Made by a program: the position numbers and the translations under genes. From Minisyncoccia bacterium (GTDB lineage: Bacteria > Patescibacteriota > Minisyncoccia > Phycocordibacterales > Phycocordibacteraceae), in contig JBBRPE010000004.1 of assembly GCA_038228545.1 (NCBI GenBank), forward strand, positions 161 through 64,160: a DNA stretch of 64,000 bases. Direction: 5' to 3'. The notes below the pieces were generated by a model. It did not search any database, had not been told where the DNA came from, and saw only the letters and a program-made list of their open reading frames with translations. Below, in pieces: positions 14,431-22,021 of the stretch (positions within the stretch are counted from its first letter, which is position 1; each line of letters starts with the position of its first letter).

Positions 14431-14643
14431 ATGAGAGAAGTCATACATACCACAGTCTATAATCTGCGTACAAACGTAGGAAGCACACAGGAAGAGCTTG
14501 CGACAGCTCTGGGTGTCTCACGCCAGACTGTTATAGCCATTGAAAAAGGGAATTACACGCCTTCGATTCTCCTTGCGCTTAAAATTGCACAGTATTTTAA
14601 AAAGCCCGTTGAACATATATTCACCATTGCCCATGAAAAATAA
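14431..14643 (+). CDS. XRE-family helix-turn-helix transcriptional regulator
   Basis: [38 protein letters not shown] is a classic HTH_3 (Cro/C1-type) motif. 70 aa. Confidence 0.85.
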
Positions 14644-14992
14644 TCTCATCGAGATAGGCGTGCTTCTCGTACTTATCGTGCTCGGCATTGTCATTCTGAA
14701 TCCACTCCATCTCTGGATGCCTGACATGATGCATGTAACGGTTCTCGCGGGCTTGCTGGTATTCTTTGCTGCGCTTGCGGCGTTTGTAGTTCAGGAAAAA
14801 GACGGCGACGAACGTGAGAATATGTTGCGTATGCTTGCAGGACGCATCGGCTACCTGGCAGGAGCTGCAGTGCTTGTTGCTGCTATCGCTATCCAAGGTT
14901 TCCATGGAGGCACCGACCCATGGCTTGTGCTTGCACTTCTTGCCATGCTTATCGCTAAGCTTGGTGTTCACCTCTATATCTCGAACCGGTAG
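14633..14992 (+). CDS. Small membrane protein partnered with the XRE regulator (DUF2178-like arrangement)
   Basis: Start ATG overlaps the regulator stop. Three or four hydrophobic helices ([55 protein letters not shown]). Confidence 0.55.
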
Positions 14993-16863: not shown

Positions 16864-17481
16864 ATGGAAACAAAGCCTCTGAACGTCCTCATACTCAATG
16901 CATCGCTTAAACACGGATCTGAACCATCCGCCACTGAAGAAGTGGCCGAAATGGTTGTCTCCAAAATGAGGGAACTTGATGCGGTTCAGAGTGTATCCGT
17001 GCGTTTGTCAGATATGAATATTCCGGTCGGACTGGGTTACAAAGAGAGCGAAGACGACGAGTGGCCGAGTATCGTCGATAAGATTATCGTTGCGGATATC
17101 GTACTGTTTGCGACTCCCATATGGTGGGGTGGGCGCTCGAGTCTTATGCAGCGGGTGATTGAGCGTATGGACGCGTTTGACGAGGGCACTGTTCCTGAAG
17201 GTCGTGCCGCGCTTCTGAATAAAGTGGCGGGGATAGTCATCACTGGCAGTGAAGACGGTGCGCAGGCCGTACTGGCCGGGCTCATGGAAGCGCTTTCGTT
17301 TTTCAACTTTACGCTTCCGCCTCAGTGTTGCACCTACTGGGTAGGAGAAGTCGGTATGGATCCAAAGACGGATTCAGAGCGTCGCCGCAAGAATCCTGCG
17401 GTAGAACATATGGCGACGGCAACTGCTAAAGGACTTGTCCACTACGCTCGTCTCATTTCGATTAATCCTCTGTCAAAATAG
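16864..17481 (+). CDS. Flavodoxin-like fold NAD(P)H-dependent FMN reductase/quinone oxidoreductase family protein
   Basis: LNVLILNASLKHGS...IVLFATPIWWGGRSSLMQRVIERMD is typical of the NADPH-dependent FMN reductase/flavodoxin_2 family. Confidence 0.7.
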   Translation: METKPLNVLILNASLKHGSEPSATEEVAEMVVSKMRELDAVQSVSVRLSDMNIPVGLGYKESEDDEWPSIVDKIIVADIVLFATPIWWGGRSSLMQRVIERMDAFDEGTVPEGRAALLNKVAGIVITGSEDGAQAVLAGLMEALSFFNFTLPPQCCTYWVGEVGMDPKTDSERRRKNPAVEHMATATAKGLVHYARLISINPLSK

Positions 17482-17485
17482 AGGG

Positions 17486-18706
17486 ATGGACATATTTACA
17501 CAGCTCGTGGGCTTTCTTACCGGCCTCGGTCTCATTATCGTAAGTATTTTTGGTGGCCAAACGAATATAGCTTCAACTGCATCCTCTCTCGTTGACACAC
17601 CAAGCGAAGTGGCTACCGTAGCGACCGCGACAGTCAATACGTCAAACACCGTCTCAAAAGGCTATAGCCAAGCAGAATTGCTTGCAATGGCAGGGGACAA
17701 ATACGCAAACGGAAGTGTACCGCTTGGCGACTACAAATATGTGACATCGGCAGCAAAGAAGGGATACGTCTATCTCTGTAATGTGCACAAAGACAATCCA
17801 GGCTCAATGGTGAATGGCCCGTGGATTACCGGCAGTACATGGAACTTCAAGAAAAAAGTAACTGTCGATGGTGCTATCACCTGGAAGCAAGCGACATTCT
17901 CGAATGTGATTTCCGGCGCGTATCGCGTCATGACTGGTAACGACTTGCCGGTTGGTCAGACGACCGGCGTGTTTCCGGTAGCAAGTTCGGATGACGCGCA
18001 CGCATACGATCCGAATCCGAATACCATTAAGGTACAGACGCAGAAGAACACCTTGCCTGCGACACCAGTCTATTCCGCGACACCCTACTGTATGGGCGGG
18101 GAAGTCGGCGTGATGAAAAACGGTGTCGCGCTCTTCAATGGATTTGATGCAGGGCTTCGCGATGCCGCAGCTCACGAGGTCCAGGATTCTAACGACGGTC
18201 ACCCACAAGGCTCAGGAGAGTATCATTACCATAGTCTTCCTGCTTTCTTGTATAACGCCACGGTCTTTACGGTTATCGGTTTTGCCTATGATGGCTTTCC
18301 GATAACCGGGCCTGTCGTCACTGATGGCAAATATCTCACCACGGACAATCTGGATGAATGTCACGGACTTACCAGTACGGTTACGCTCGATGGTAAGCAG
18401 GTAACAACCTATCACTACGTAATGACGTACGACTTCCCATACTCAGCGAGCTGCTTCCGCGGCAAGTCTTCCTTTGTGAGCTCGCCTAATGGCGCTCCGC
18501 AATCGGGTGGTGCTGGGGCCACATCTGCTTCGTCAGCTGGACCGTCGTCGGGCGGTACTCCGCCACAAGAAGCCATAACCGCCTGTACCAGCAAAGCGAC
18601 AAACGCGTCCTGTTCCTTTACCGGAGGCCAGGGTGAGACAGTCTCAGGTACCTGCAAGACCCCACCTGGGAGCTCATCTTCTGCGTGCGTTCCCACAAAT
18701 AGATAA
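17486..18706 (+). CDS. YHYH domain-containing secreted/membrane-anchored protein
   Basis: GEYHYHSLPAFL signature of the YHYH family, N-terminal TM anchor, and a G/S/P-rich Cys-containing C-terminal tail. Confidence 0.65.
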   Translation: MDIFTQLVGFLTGLGLIIVSIFGGQTNIASTASSLVDTPSEVATVATATVNTSNTVSKGYSQAELLAMAGDKYANGSVPLGDYKYVTSAAKKGYVYLCNVHKDNPGSMVNGPWITGSTWNFKKKVTVDGAITWKQATFSNVISGAYRVMTGNDLPVGQTTGVFPVASSDDAHAYDPNPNTIKVQTQKNTLPATPVYSATPYCMGGEVGVMKNGVALFNGFDAGLRDAAAHEVQDSNDGHPQGSGEYHYHSLPAFLYNATVFTVIGFAYDGFPITGPVVTDGKYLTTDNLDECHGLTSTVTLDGKQVTTYHYVMTYDFPYSASCFRGKSSFVSSPNGAPQSGGAGATSASSAGPSSGGTPPQEAITACTSKATNASCSFTGGQGETVSGTCKTPPGSSSSACVPTNR

Positions 18707-18809
18707 CAATCGAATTGTACGTAGTAGCCGTCGACAGATCACTTTTGTTTAAAGTGTTGCCCTACACAAAGGCCCCACGGATTTCTCCGCGGGGCTGCTT
18801 CTCTCTCCA

Positions 18810-19550
18810 TCAAATGACCTTTCCGTCGGCGAATCGTCCGGTTCGCCGTGCCGCCTCGCTCCAAAGTGCACGGCGTATTGCGAACTGAGTGTGTTTGTTA
18901 TCGGAGAAATGCGGAGTTTGAATACTCCTGAACATGGCACCGATTGCCAGGGTCACGTCGTGATCTTTGAAGTTGTTCTCCCTGATTATTATCTTGTTTT
19001 TCCAGTTCGCGGCGAGTCCGGCAAGTGTTTTTGCATCACGATTCCGGTGTACTCCTTTGCTTAACAGAGTTGGAATATGCGTAGCAATCTTTACTATAAC
19101 GAACTCGTTTTCCACGACCATTCTTGAGATGTAGTCTTCAGGAGTTTCATTCGTCGGTTGTGCCACTGGCCTCATCGACACGTTTCGTCGTGGTTCTTCT
19201 CGACGTATGACTGGCGGCCGATGCTCTGGGGCATGCACTGCCGAAGTAACGGCTGCCGGCCGTGCGGCCGATTTTGGCCGCACGGCGTCTACACCGCTCT
19301 TGGTGTGAAAGTCGCAAAGACCAGTTTTCGGGTTTACCCGCCCCTGCTCGTGCTCGGAAGCATCCTGCCTAAAGCAGGGAATGCATCGTCGCGACGGAGA
19401 GGGACAGCTGGTGCAGAGCGTCTTGTTTGTGACAGTCCCGGACGCGCTCACACAAGCATCGTGCGTGACTGCGCGCATATAGACGCCGCAGGCCTCATAG
19501 CCGCCGCCTGCCTGTGGTGAAAGCACGGCACTCCTTGTTGAAATAGGCAT
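18810..19550 (-). CDS. Hypothetical protein co-oriented downstream of dinB: GC-rich N-terminal Cys-rich (Zn-ribbon-like CxxC-x6-CxxC) region, linker, ~120-aa C-terminal domain
   Basis: Track ORF 18810..19712. The start is taken at ATG 19550, preceded by GGAG. N-terminus CTSCPSPSRRCIPC. The C-terminal half (18810..19175, MRPVAQPTNETPEDYISRMVVENEFVIVKIATHIPTLL...) has normal composition. The 19176-19623 block is ~65% GC and full of hairpins, so part of it may be non-coding. Confidence 0.35.
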   Translation of the reverse strand: MPISTRSAVLSPQAGGGYEACGVYMRAVTHDACVSASGTVTNKTLCTSCPSPSRRCIPCFRQDASEHEQGRVNPKTGLCDFHTKSGVDAVRPKSAARPAAVTSAVHAPEHRPPVIRREEPRRNVSMRPVAQPTNETPEDYISRMVVENEFVIVKIATHIPTLLSKGVHRNRDAKTLAGLAANWKNKIIIRENNFKDHDVTLAIGAMFRSIQTPHFSDNKHTQFAIRRALWSEAARRTGRFADGKVI

Positions 19551-19623
19551 GGAATAACTCCGTGATGTGCCCGGACAGGATCGTCCAGGGGGAGTATGCA
19601 CTTGTTTTTCGTACCTGCAAATC

Positions 19624-20952
19624 TCAGTCAACATCGCCCAAGTAGGGAAGAGGGAATATCTTCTTGCGATCTTCCGCTTGAAAAAGTGCGTCACGTCTCT
19701 TTTGTGAACCACTGCCGATACTGTGTCCTCGTGAGGCTATAACACCTGCTCGCGTAGCCTTCATAGAGGAACCAAGGTAGATGCTCCCTTGACCATATCT
19801 ATCCGTAAGTTCGTCTACTTTCTCAAAGAGACGCACCACTCCAGCAGCCTTCTTCGGATTGGTAAATAAATCCGGTTGGGATTCTTTTGATTCGTGCAGT
19901 CCAGTGAGCGTTACTCCTGTTGCTCGATAGCGAGTACCTTTTTGAAATACGTTTTGAAAATTCGGCTCGAGCGCCGCGAGAAGCTCGTGCGGCGCATTCG
20001 TAGCTTGTACGAGCTTAATCTCACATCCTTTGTAGCGGAATTCACTTGATTTAAGAAAGAACGATACGCCTTTAGCCACTAATCCGTGGTGTCGTGCCTT
20101 TACACACGCCGCTTCTATATTTTTTGAAAGTTGAGAATAGAGAAAATCAGCTTCGCTTGTGGAAGGAGAAAAGGTACGAGTCTTTTGGATTGAGTGATAA
20201 CTGTCTTTGGCTACCGTTGCAAGGTCATACACCGAAATACCGTTTAACTCCTGCCACGTTTCGATACCCGGCTTCGTTAGAAGAGTGCGTACCCATATTT
20301 CGTCTTTCTTCGCAAAATCGAGAGCAGTTTTAATTCCATGTTTGTTTAAAAGCTCCGCGGTATTGGGCCCAATGCCCCAAATATTTCCTATTTTCGTATT
20401 CTCAAGGTACCGGTCTTTCTCCATAAGACGTATGGGTGTAAAACCATCCGGTTTGGCATATTTCGAACCAACCTTCGCAAGTACTTTCGTGCACGCGAGT
20501 CCAACTGAGAAGGTAATATCAAGCTCACGCCGCAAATCATCTTTAATCTTTCGGGCGATTTCCTCATAGTTCATGTGGTGTACTCGTCGCATGCCGGTAA
20601 TGTCTCCAAAGCACTCATCGATACCGTACTCCTCTACCTCCGGAGTGTAACGCCGCATGATTTCATTCATGCGAATGGAATAGAGTGTGTAGAGCTCGTA
20701 GTCCGACGACACGATAATTGCTTCCGGACAAATCTTTTTTACATCAGCCAGACGTATGCCACGCGTAATTCCGCGAGCCTTTGCTTCGTAGGTGGCGGCA
20801 GAAACAATACCGCGCTCGGCACCGGTCACCACGGGCTTCCCACGTAGTGCTGGGTTGCGCGCCACTTCGCATGCGGCGAAGAAGGAATCGCCGTCTACAT
20901 GGATAATCGCACGCGGGTAGTGGTACGCCTTACCCCACCCAACCTCATTCAT
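19624..20952 (-). CDS. dinB: Y-family DNA polymerase IV (DinB)
   Basis: IIHVDGDSFFAACE (catalytic Asp pair) and IDECFGDITG (catalytic Glu) are retained, with little-finger and C-terminal regions. Immediately downstream of lexA on the same strand. Confidence 0.85.
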   Translation of the reverse strand: MNEVGWGKAYHYPRAIIHVDGDSFFAACEVARNPALRGKPVVTGAERGIVSAATYEAKARGITRGIRLADVKKICPEAIIVSSDYELYTLYSIRMNEIMRRYTPEVEEYGIDECFGDITGMRRVHHMNYEEIARKIKDDLRRELDITFSVGLACTKVLAKVGSKYAKPDGFTPIRLMEKDRYLENTKIGNIWGIGPNTAELLNKHGIKTALDFAKKDEIWVRTLLTKPGIETWQELNGISVYDLATVAKDSYHSIQKTRTFSPSTSEADFLYSQLSKNIEAACVKARHHGLVAKGVSFFLKSSEFRYKGCEIKLVQATNAPHELLAALEPNFQNVFQKGTRYRATGVTLTGLHESKESQPDLFTNPKKAAGVVRLFEKVDELTDRYGQGSIYLGSSMKATRAGVIASRGHSIGSGSQKRRDALFQAEDRKKIFPLPYLGDVD

Positions 20953-21147
20953 ATGAATCGCGAAACTGTCGCGTGGCTTCGTCGTACATCCGGTTCATGA
21001 TTCCTATGAGGAGGCTGTGCTTACCGAACTGCTATGTGCTGACTCTGCAGAAAGCGGTGCCCTGTCTTGCGGCGTGTCTCGAATATCGCACGGTCCTGCC
21101 ATGCTCCTACTGACACCATGGACCTCACTAGTTCTTTGGTACTCATA

Positions 21148-21711
21148 TTAGTATTTGCGTACGACGCCGGTAACGACGGCCTCGATAGTTAAATTGCCCT
21201 TCGGATAAATCGGCTTGTACGCACTATTCGCAGGCTCGAGGAAATAGTGCTCCCCTGACTTCCGGAGGTATTTCATCGTGTATTCGCCCTCAATCGAGGC
21301 AATGACTATCTGCCCGACCTTTGCCGTACGACGCTCGACGATGACGAGATCACCCGGGCATATGCCGGCGTCTATCATGCTTTCCCCCTTCACTTTGAGA
21401 ACATAACTCGATTCCTTGTTGGGTGTCAGATATTCGTCAAAGTCCATGACATCGAGCAGCTCTTCCTCAGCAGAGGAGGGGAAGCCAGCTTCCACAAGGC
21501 CGAGTAGTGGAATACCCGCGAGCGTGCGCCCTGGTGAAAGCCGACCTTCGCGATCTTTGGCAAGTACGCCTTCCTCGACTAATTTATTAATAAGCTTATA
21601 GACCGAGTTCTTCGAGGCAAGACCTGTTGCCTCCATGATTTCCTTATAGCCGGGCATGCGCTTGTGGCGCTCCCAGAATCCAATGACTTTTCGTTTATAA
21701 GTGTCGTACAC
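21148..21711 (-). CDS. lexA: LexA repressor (SOS response transcriptional repressor, S24 peptidase)
   Basis: N-terminal winged-helix region (MPGYKEIMEATGLASKNSVYKLINKLVEEGVL). C-terminal S24 domain with Ser in VKGESMIDAGI and Lys in VVTGVVRKY. Confidence 0.9.
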   Translation of the reverse strand: MYDTYKRKVIGFWERHKRMPGYKEIMEATGLASKNSVYKLINKLVEEGVLAKDREGRLSPGRTLAGIPLLGLVEAGFPSSAEEELLDVMDFDEYLTPNKESSYVLKVKGESMIDAGICPGDLVIVERRTAKVGQIVIASIEGEYTMKYLRKSGEHYFLEPANSAYKPIYPKGNLTIEAVVTGVVRKY

Positions 21712-21725
21712 GGTCTTTCCAGTAT

Positions 21726-21745
21726 AGGTGAACTGTGGTTCACCT
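21726..21745. promoter_or_regulatory. LexA operator (SOS box), Cheo-box type: AGGTGAAC-TGTG-GTTCACCT
   Basis: A GAAC-N4-GTTC core inside a 20-bp perfect palindrome, 15-34 bp upstream of the lexA ATG, in the divergent intergenic region shared with the DUF1059 gene. Confidence 0.7.
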
Positions 21746-21805
21746 GCAAGTTGTGGATAGCTGACAGTGGTACAATCTGGCTATACCAACTTCGAATTCT
21801 TATCT

Positions 21806-22021
21806 ATGAAGACCATGACTTGTGCTCAAATGGGCGGCATGTGCGATACCGCGGTTAGTGCTGAAACCAAGGACGAAATGATGGCTAAGGGTATGGAGCA
21901 TCTCGACGCAGCTCATCCGGAAATGGCGGCAACTGTTAAATCTATGGCTCATGACGACCCTATGATGGTCGCGTGGGTAGAGAAATTCAACGCAGACTGG
22001 GAGGCTGCTCCTGAGGTCTAG
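21806..22021 (+). CDS. DUF1059 family small protein
   Basis: MKTMTCAQMGGMCDTAVSAETKDEMMAKGMEHL... matches the MKxxxCxxxGxxCD start pattern of DUF1059. Start at an internal Met of track ORF 21767..22021. Confidence 0.6.
   Translation: MKTMTCAQMGGMCDTAVSAETKDEMMAKGMEHLDAAHPEMAATVKSMAHDDPMMVAWVEKFNADWEAAPEV

Follow-up and report, generated by a model that had tools for sequence, protein, structure and literature searches.

A candidate metal-binding helix-turn-helix regulator encoded downstream of a lexA–dinB pair in a Minisyncoccia bacterium

Introduction

The closest described relatives of the locus reported here are the SOS operons with a Gram-positive-type GAAC-N4-GTTC (Cheo) box, in which lexA is followed by a gene for a Y-family polymerase. 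The locus lies in a stretch of 64,000 nucleotides from a Minisyncoccia bacterium (GenBank assembly GCA_038228545.1, contig JBBRPE010000004.1, positions 161 to 64,160 of the forward strand; "the window" below is this whole stretch). It consists of lexA, a Y-family polymerase gene (dinB) and a third open reading frame, ORF3, which are co-oriented on the minus strand, as a preliminary description of the DNA had stated. The lexA–dinB pair shares with the Cheo-box operons an S24 LexA with an Ala-Gly cleavage site, an operator overlapping the core promoter and a translesion polymerase directly downstream. Nothing essential differs; the features particular to the window are an 8+4+8 operator, a leaderless or near-leaderless lexA with a GTG start, as it appears, and an extension of ~80 residues on the polymerase. 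The SOS network of the Patescibacteria has reportedly been analysed by Sanchez-Osuna, Barbe and Erill, in Environ Microbiol in 2017 (cited in PMC8565304). Because a standard SOS module of this type has already been reported for Patescibacteria, the lexA–dinB part of the locus adds nothing new, and ORF3 is the main subject of this report.

The imuA-imuB-dnaE2 and umuDC cassettes are likewise LexA-controlled multi-gene translesion units, and in umuDC an S24 protein is encoded upstream of a Y-family polymerase. In contrast to umuDC, the S24 protein of the window is a full LexA with a helix-turn-helix (HTH), above the equivalog cut-off, and the polymerase scores higher as Pol IV than as UmuC. ORF3 lacks the features of ImuA, ImuB and DnaE2. 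Neither ORF3 nor its family matched these proteins in Pfam or NCBIfam, which agrees with the earlier statement that the third gene is not a known member of an SOS cassette.

Two groups of transcription regulators are closer to ORF3 itself. Like the LuxR/GerE (NarL/FixJ-type) one-component regulators, it is predicted to have a four-helix HTH at the C-terminus, joined by a flexible linker to a regulatory domain at the N-terminus. However, its N-terminal domain (N-domain) is a module of ~75 residues with seven Cys and one His (Cys7His), unlike receiver, autoinducer-binding and other known domains, and the HTH of its family is divergent: no member, ORF3 included, reaches the gathering score of Pfam GerE. 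The Cys-rich, metal-cofactored factors, including the WhiB-like [4Fe-4S] proteins, the Zn(Cys)4 domain of N-Ada with its HTH, and FNR, also couple a Cys-rich module to transcription control. The CxxCP of ORF3 resembles the CxxCPxxxxC of the Wbl proteins, and the analogy with Ada lies in a Zn-thiolate sensor with an HTH beside repair genes. In contrast to these factors, ORF3 has eight ligands and not four, and its models found no Foldseek match to their structures. The resemblance to WhiB, Ada and FNR is a functional analogy only.

On balance, and by no wide measure of confidence, we favour the view that ORF3, placed after lexA–dinB at the 3' end, encodes a one-component regulator that binds both metal and DNA, with a basal promoter of its own and possible read-through from the SOS promoter.

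Results

ORF3 is a real gene. Two alternative starts share the end at 18810, a GTG at 19712 (300 residues) and an ATG at 19550 (246 residues; Table 1). The ATG is likely to be the start codon: a GGAG Shine-Dalgarno sequence is present 7 nt upstream (19558-19561), the start codons align across the orthologous loci, and the orthologues P0122 and P0124 likewise begin with MP (P and L numbers are our own handles for proteins and loci). The deposited protein model, P0001 (238 residues from a GTG at 19526), is probably eight codons short. The junctions of the three genes had been described as short or overlapping, but they measure 195 nt between lexA and dinB and 73 nt between dinB and ORF3, and an overlap of the latter two arises only with the unsupported GTG at 19712.

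Table 1. Positions of the features in the window
Feature	Position	Strand	Description
Terminator-like hairpin	18772..18795	-	10-bp stem with 8 G-C pairs, then CTTTGTGT; 15 nt past the ORF3 stop
ORF3	18810..19550	-	246 aa; Cys7His N-domain, Pro/Arg/Ala-rich linker, predicted C-terminal LuxR/GerE-type HTH
ORF3 C-terminal HTH region	18843..19040	-	residues ~171-236; RDAKTLAGLAANW / KNKIIIRENNF / DVTLAIGAMFRSIQ and a fourth helix
ORF3 N-domain	19275..19508	-	residues ~15-92; from an alignment of 25 sequences
ORF3 promoter-like element	19593..19620	-	-35 TTGCAG (19615-19620), 16-nt spacer, -10 CATACT (19593-19598)
Y-family polymerase (DinB/Pol IV-like)	19624..20952	-	442 aa; IMS, IMS_C, IMS_HHH
lexA–dinB spacer	20953..21147	-	195 nt
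lexA	21148..21711	-	187 aa; winged-HTH N-terminus, Ala-Gly cleavage site VEAGFP, S24 Ser/Lys peptidase
Putative lexA promoter	21721..21749	-	-35 TTGCAG (21744-21749), 17-nt spacer filled by the LexA box, -10 TATACT (21721-21726)
LexA operator	21726..21745	.	AGGTGAAC-N4-GTTCACCT; palindrome, perfect over 8+4+8, core GAAC-N4-GTTC

When 1.84 billion representative proteins were scanned in full with HMMER, ORF3 matched 35 proteins at E ≤ 1e-3, including the query, seven of them at ≤ 1e-10. A word-index search of 5.8 billion proteins returned the query only, and the same search with the family profile returned the query and two members. The family comprises ~34 clusters at 50% identity. It has no curated model in Pfam, NCBIfam or PHROGs, no description of it was found in a literature search, and the sole member recorded under a named organism is listed as a hypothetical protein from Parcubacteria. 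One match, P0145, was discarded as spurious, since it is a lysin with Ig-like repeats. Metagenomes were searched with a hand-made degenerate DNA pattern of the Cys and His ligands; the 14 loci found comprised four new true members, two known ones (L019 = L014 and L021 = L013) and eight chance Cys-rich frames. A motif scan of viral contigs in IMG/VR yielded no family members and two chance matches, and PHROG matches were obtained for one family member only, consistent with the one that bears an XRE-type HTH. A regulator borne by a phage or mobile element was rejected on the absence of viral members in that scan, the lack of a fold match in BFVD and the chromosomal housekeeping genes that neighbour the family.

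The N-terminal region of ORF3 contains eight invariant candidate ligands, C21, C33, C46, C49, C56, C59, C79 and H82 (numbered from the ATG at 19550), and R54, G77 and G86 are nearly invariant. The CxxC-x6-CxxC of the preliminary description is thereby confirmed as C46, C49, C56 and C59 of the 246-residue product. The eight ligands would suffice for two Zn sites, or for an Fe-S centre and a Zn site, and their conservation suggests that the N-domain binds metal. In AlphaFold2 (AF2) models, the N-domain block had a predicted local distance difference test score of 86-97 in the full-length protein and of 82-94 in the domain alone (predicted template modelling score 0.60), and the predicted fold comprises a beta-hairpin and four short helices. 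The search by profile and structure that the preliminary description had proposed thus revealed a family, and no counterpart of the N-domain in Pfam, PDB or BFVD. The domain belongs to no Pfam, NCBIfam or PHROG family and has no sequence relative in PDB, and Foldseek searches of PDB and BFVD with the full-length and N-domain models returned nothing at E < 1. A WhiB-like N-domain was considered and rejected: hhalign gave a probability of 0.4% against WhiB1, the Cys spacing is X6 and not X5, the G[VI]WGG turn is absent, and there was no Foldseek match.

The N-domain is not confined to proteins built like ORF3. In one member it is joined to an XRE-type HTH, and in six matches it is fused to ParB_N and/or HTH_ParB (P0135, P0141, P0142, P0144, P0150 and P0155; 376-633 residues). 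P0135 carries two tandem copies. The contigs examined for these fusions (P0150 and P0142; loci L032 and L033) are too short to show gene context. Its occurrence on LuxR-type HTH, XRE-type HTH and ParB modules suggests that the domain is a recurrent N-terminal accessory of DNA-binding proteins.

A Pro/Arg-rich linker connects the N-domain to the C-terminal half. The GC content is 0.59-0.61 at 19150-19600 and is unusually high in the linker. The C-terminal domain, of ~120 residues, had been called unrecognised, but at the level of the family profile it corresponds to a LuxR/GerE-type HTH, with matches to the HTH domains of VraR (3.3e-6), GerE (3.2e-5) and NarL (9e-5), and also DesR. Weak Pfam matches were present among the 27 members searched, to GerE in four (best E-value 5.7e-4) and to Sigma70_r4_2 in three. 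The C-terminal half of ORF3 scored 35 bits against a profile made from the other members only, with the three HTH helices aligned without insertion. An apparent insertion in the HTH of the MAFFT alignment was an artefact, the profile alignment being continuous. A search for a conserved inverted-repeat operator near the family genes found none.

The preliminary description placed ORF3 under the LexA box upstream of lexA alone. ORF3 appears, however, to have a conserved promoter of its own. A promoter-like element begins 3 nt past the dinB stop codon (TGA, 19626-19624), with no LexA box inside it, and of the seven family loci compared, six (the window, L010, L014, L013, L012 and L015) have the pattern TTGNNN-N16-CATA(A/C)T 66-79 nt ahead of the start codon, with or without dinB nearby. 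In the seventh, L008, a less exact match lies at a greater distance upstream. When the six loci are aligned, TTG and CATA-T form invariant columns in upstream sequence that is otherwise divergent, and by our own estimate a chance match to the pattern would be expected in ~1.5e-3 of loci. A generic scan of 4 kb of the plus strand of L010 returned exactly two promoter-like sites, namely the LexA-box promoter and the element of the ORF3 type. A conserved hairpin in the 5' untranslated region of ORF3 was also considered and dismissed, as RNAalifold predicted 0 pairs.

No terminator was found between dinB and ORF3 in the window, or between dinB and the family gene in L010. The only terminator candidate on the minus strand between 18500 and 22100 is the hairpin past the ORF3 stop codon, and L010 has an equivalent 12-bp hairpin downstream of the orthologue P0122. 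As there is no terminator between dinB and ORF3 and a strong one after ORF3, transcripts from the de-repressed lexA promoter would probably read through into ORF3.

The ORF3 family was observed in two kinds of genomic setting. L010/L011, from a Parcubacteria metagenome-assembled genome, is syntenic with the window on both sides, and its gene order is ACR_tran, VTT/DedA, lexA, dinB, nei (H2TH) and P0122, followed on the opposite strand by genes for FMN reductase, DsbD-AhpC/thioredoxin and MFS. In L014, the 3' part of dinB is followed by nei and P0125. An association with dinB, which had been proposed for checking, was therefore found in two other genomes; the window, L010/L011 and L014 are positional orthologues in syntenic genomes and so represent approximately one evolutionary event. 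The link is not a stable one. The four loci with the closest DinB (L004-L007, 72-79% identity) have no ORF3 gene at this site and carry unrelated opposite-strand genes downstream of dinB instead. The preliminary description had held that replacement of ORF3 by non-coding sequence in close relatives would count against it; the gene is indeed absent there, but its place is taken by other genes. A 215-residue protein encoded downstream of dinB in L006 was examined as a possible homologue, and BLASTP was negative.

In at least eight other loci, the family gene lies elsewhere and not at dinB. In L013, P0124 is divergent from an XRE-HTH gene pair; in L012 the gene is located between peptidase genes; in L015/L016 it adjoins the gene for ribosomal protein L9; in L028 it is near DUF2914 and AOX genes; and in L008 and L031 it is near genes for an MBL-fold hydrolase or PGK. 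The surroundings of the family gene in L008 and L031 also include, at 3-7 kb, genes for recJ, RNase H and Fe/Mn superoxide dismutase, and in L025 (361-1990) and L027 (1661-3049) the family genes (P0137 and a relative) are convergent with an adjoining recO. An XRE-HTH gene (~70 residues) followed by a gene of ~119 residues recurs in this syntenic region, in the window (~14440-14992, plus strand), L007 (8153-8711) and L013 (200-764). Convergent with ORF3 in the window is a gene for a YHYH-domain protein of 423 residues (17435-18706, plus strand), part of which is rich in Ser, Gly and Pro and the C-terminal tail of which contains Cys; L006, which is syntenic, likewise carries a YHYH gene.

Read from its sequence, the lexA–dinB pair is a conserved, putatively LexA-autoregulated SOS pair of a known kind; the preliminary description had likewise proposed an SOS operon under a LexA box. 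The LexA protein matches Pfam Peptidase_S24 (3e-25) and scores 116.6 bits against the TIGR00498 lexA equivalog, over the cut-off of 110.95. The Ser/Lys motifs GESM and MKYLRK can be read in the translation, and the N-terminal HTH gave a weak Pfam match only (LexA_DNA_bind, E-value 0.061). The co-oriented pair is conserved in L001, L004/L005, L006, L007 and L010/L011, with 65-88% identity to the window for LexA and 53-79% for DinB (79% in L004/L005, 74% in L006 and 72% in L007). The relatives include LexA proteins of 84-88% identity encoded beside dinB.

The predicted operator is the palindrome AGGTGAACTGTGGTTCACCT, or, with the central four nucleotides set apart, AGGTGAAC-TGTG-GTTCACCT. It contains the only exact GAAC-N4-GTTC in the window; as 1.28 such sites are expected by chance and one was observed, the 12-nt core alone is not significant. 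The 16-nt GTGAAC-N4-GTTCAC likewise matches exactly at one place, and the sites that rank after it carry at least two mismatches and lie inside genes. The second-best site (14609-14624, two mismatches) is located in the 3' end of an XRE-HTH gene and was attributed to chance. The earlier statement that the perfect palindrome upstream of lexA is the only strong operator therefore holds for the window. In the related Parcubacteria and Kaiserbacteria loci that include the region upstream of lexA (L001, L004, L005, L007, L010 and L011), TGAAC-N4-GTTCA occurs exactly once per locus and always just upstream of lexA.

The element at 21721-21749 would function as the lexA promoter. In the relatives, the LexA box is always within the -35/-10 spacer, and this layout is common to L010 (TTGACT-18-TATACT, detected by the scanner), L004, L007 and L001. 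LexA would occupy the GGTGAAC-N4-GTTCACC palindrome between the -35 and the -10, and, because the palindrome fills the spacer, its binding should block RNA polymerase. DNA damage would then lead to RecA-stimulated self-cleavage of LexA at the Ala-Gly site and to de-repression of lexA and the downstream polymerase. The GTG start codon of lexA is 9 nt downstream of the -10 in the window, and the start codon is 6-7 nt past it in the relatives, so that the lexA mRNA is apparently leaderless or nearly so in this clade. The stretches concerned are at 21709-21726 in the window, 131-147 in L004, 4268-4286 in L007, 5184-5198 in L010 and 5343-5358 in L001. The GTG of the window stands at the same protein position, MYD(T/S)YKRK, as an ATG in the relatives. 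Divergent from lexA is a DUF1059 gene (21767-22021, plus strand), the likely ATG of which is ~60 nt from the LexA box, so that the operator could also affect a promoter in that direction; L010 and L007 do not share this neighbour.

The lexA–dinB spacer contains no promoter-like or terminator-like site on the minus strand and no Rfam match; the Rfam search of the region as a whole likewise returned no RNA family. The spacer measures 3 nt in L010, 70 nt in L001 and 133-151 nt in L004-L007, and its comparison with these relatives revealed little sequence conservation and no conserved element.

The Y-family polymerase matches the Pfam families IMS (9e-44), IMS_C (2e-14) and IMS_HHH (1.5e-5). The catalytic acidic residues are retained in the motifs HVDGDSFF and GIDECF, in agreement with the earlier statement that the enzyme is catalytically intact. 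The best NCBIfam models were those of Pol IV (222 bits), ahead of UmuC (165 bits), and the assignment to the DinB/Pol IV subfamily is approximate because the Pol IV scores are below the curated cut-offs. The polymerase has 3968 homologues at E ≤ 1e-80, and the names among the matches to the DinB query include Parcubacteria, Paceibacterota, Kaiserbacteria and Patescibacteria group, which identifies the source of the DNA as a member of the Patescibacteria. Near the C-terminus (19624-19900) is QPDLF, followed by the ~80-residue extension, which ends in LPYLGDVD and is conserved in relatives (LPLLGEV in L001 and IPVLGHKI in L002). QPDLF resembles the beta-clamp-binding consensus QL[SD]LF.

Discussion

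The reading favoured here is that the Cys7His N-domain of ORF3 is joined by a flexible Pro/Arg-rich linker to a LuxR/GerE-type HTH, which would bind DNA, probably as a dimer. Basal expression would come from the LexA-box-free promoter abutting the dinB stop codon, and read-through from the lexA promoter would add a boost during the SOS response. The analysis predicts that ORF3 binds DNA, that its promoter is active and that read-through reaches it; any target genes are likewise a matter of prediction. Several observations weigh against this reading. Metal binding is inferred from conservation only. ORF3 alone has no significant Pfam HTH match, its predicted helix 2 (KNKIIIRENNF) is atypical and was modelled with low confidence, and the HTH call depends on the family profile, with E-values of just 1e-4 to 1e-6. 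The promoter scanner flagged neither promoter of the window, because each -35 matches TTGACA at three of six positions. No LexA box was found near the own promoter of any family member, and any SOS control would therefore depend on read-through. The three dinB-linked cases are not independent associations, and the closest relatives of the locus lack the gene.

The main alternative is an independent regulator with no functional tie to the SOS module, placed downstream of dinB by lineage-specific gene order only and served essentially by its own promoter. We regard this as possible, though doubtful. Such a protein may serve the adjacent DsbD-AhpC/thioredoxin, FMN reductase, pirin and YHYH genes, for instance by sensing redox state through thiols or an Fe-S centre. 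Redox regulators are usually built with a Cys-rich sensor domain on an HTH, the block from dinB to the GIY-YIG/MFS genes is variable and contains many redox genes, and superoxide dismutase genes lie 4-7 kb from two distant members. The promoter is conserved whether or not dinB is nearby, and for most family members neither lexA nor dinB is close by. However, the gene directly follows dinB or nei, in the same orientation, in all three of the window, L010 and L014, with no terminator before it in the two loci scanned (the window and L010). Other members lie beside repair genes, namely recO in L025 and L027 and, in L008 and L031, recJ at no more than 3-6 kb. No shared operator motif was found that would link ORF3 to the redox genes, and the eight invariant ligands fit structural Zn sites equally well.

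The preliminary description had suggested that ORF3 assists translesion synthesis as an accessory factor, or else is a nuclease or an inhibitor induced in the SOS response, which would act at the protein level on DinB, the clamp or damaged DNA. The gene is downstream of and co-oriented with dinB in three genomes, Zn-binding modules occur in many DNA-repair proteins, and the N-domain is fused in six relatives to ParB_N, a domain with nucleotide-binding or nuclease-like activities. The architecture points elsewhere, however, since the Cys7His domain is coupled to a C-terminal half homologous to LuxR-type HTHs and recurs on XRE-HTH and ParB modules. Pfam and NCBIfam searches found no nuclease, ImuA/ImuB or polymerase-accessory domain, the gene is dispensable beside dinB in the closest relatives, most family loci have no dinB nearby, and ORF3 has a promoter of its own, making this role improbable. 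That ORF3 might be a chance frame or a decaying remnant in a variable intergenic region was suggested by the word-index search that returned the query alone, by the high GC of the linker and by the lack of a Pfam match. This explanation is effectively refuted by the family found in the full HMMER scan, the eight intact ligands, a C-terminal domain that matches the family profile end to end, and a Shine-Dalgarno sequence, start codon, promoter and terminator that are in place and aligned with those of the orthologues.

A wider role for the regulator proposed here can be imagined, although as a whole it is unlikely. The Cys7His-HTH family would be a sensor-regulator specific to the candidate phyla radiation (CPR), built on a new metal-binding fold, raised by DNA damage through the LexA operon and controlling a second, LexA-independent tier of damage and oxidative-stress genes. 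If this were true, targets of the second tier could include nei, recO and the AhpC/thioredoxin/FMN-reductase block, and the protein would correspond in function to Ada or PafBC, in organisms whose transcription factors are very few. The presence of the domain on ParB-like proteins would then point to a larger class of DNA-binding modules, dependent on metal and so far undescribed.

The new element of the locus is the ORF3 family, a putative HTH regulator with an undescribed Cys7His domain that is found on three kinds of DNA-binding module. It represents a modest advance and not a new principle. As very few regulators can be recognised in the CPR, a lineage-specific and possibly metal-dependent regulator behind an SOS operon would offer a testable lead on how these bacteria regulate their response to stress.

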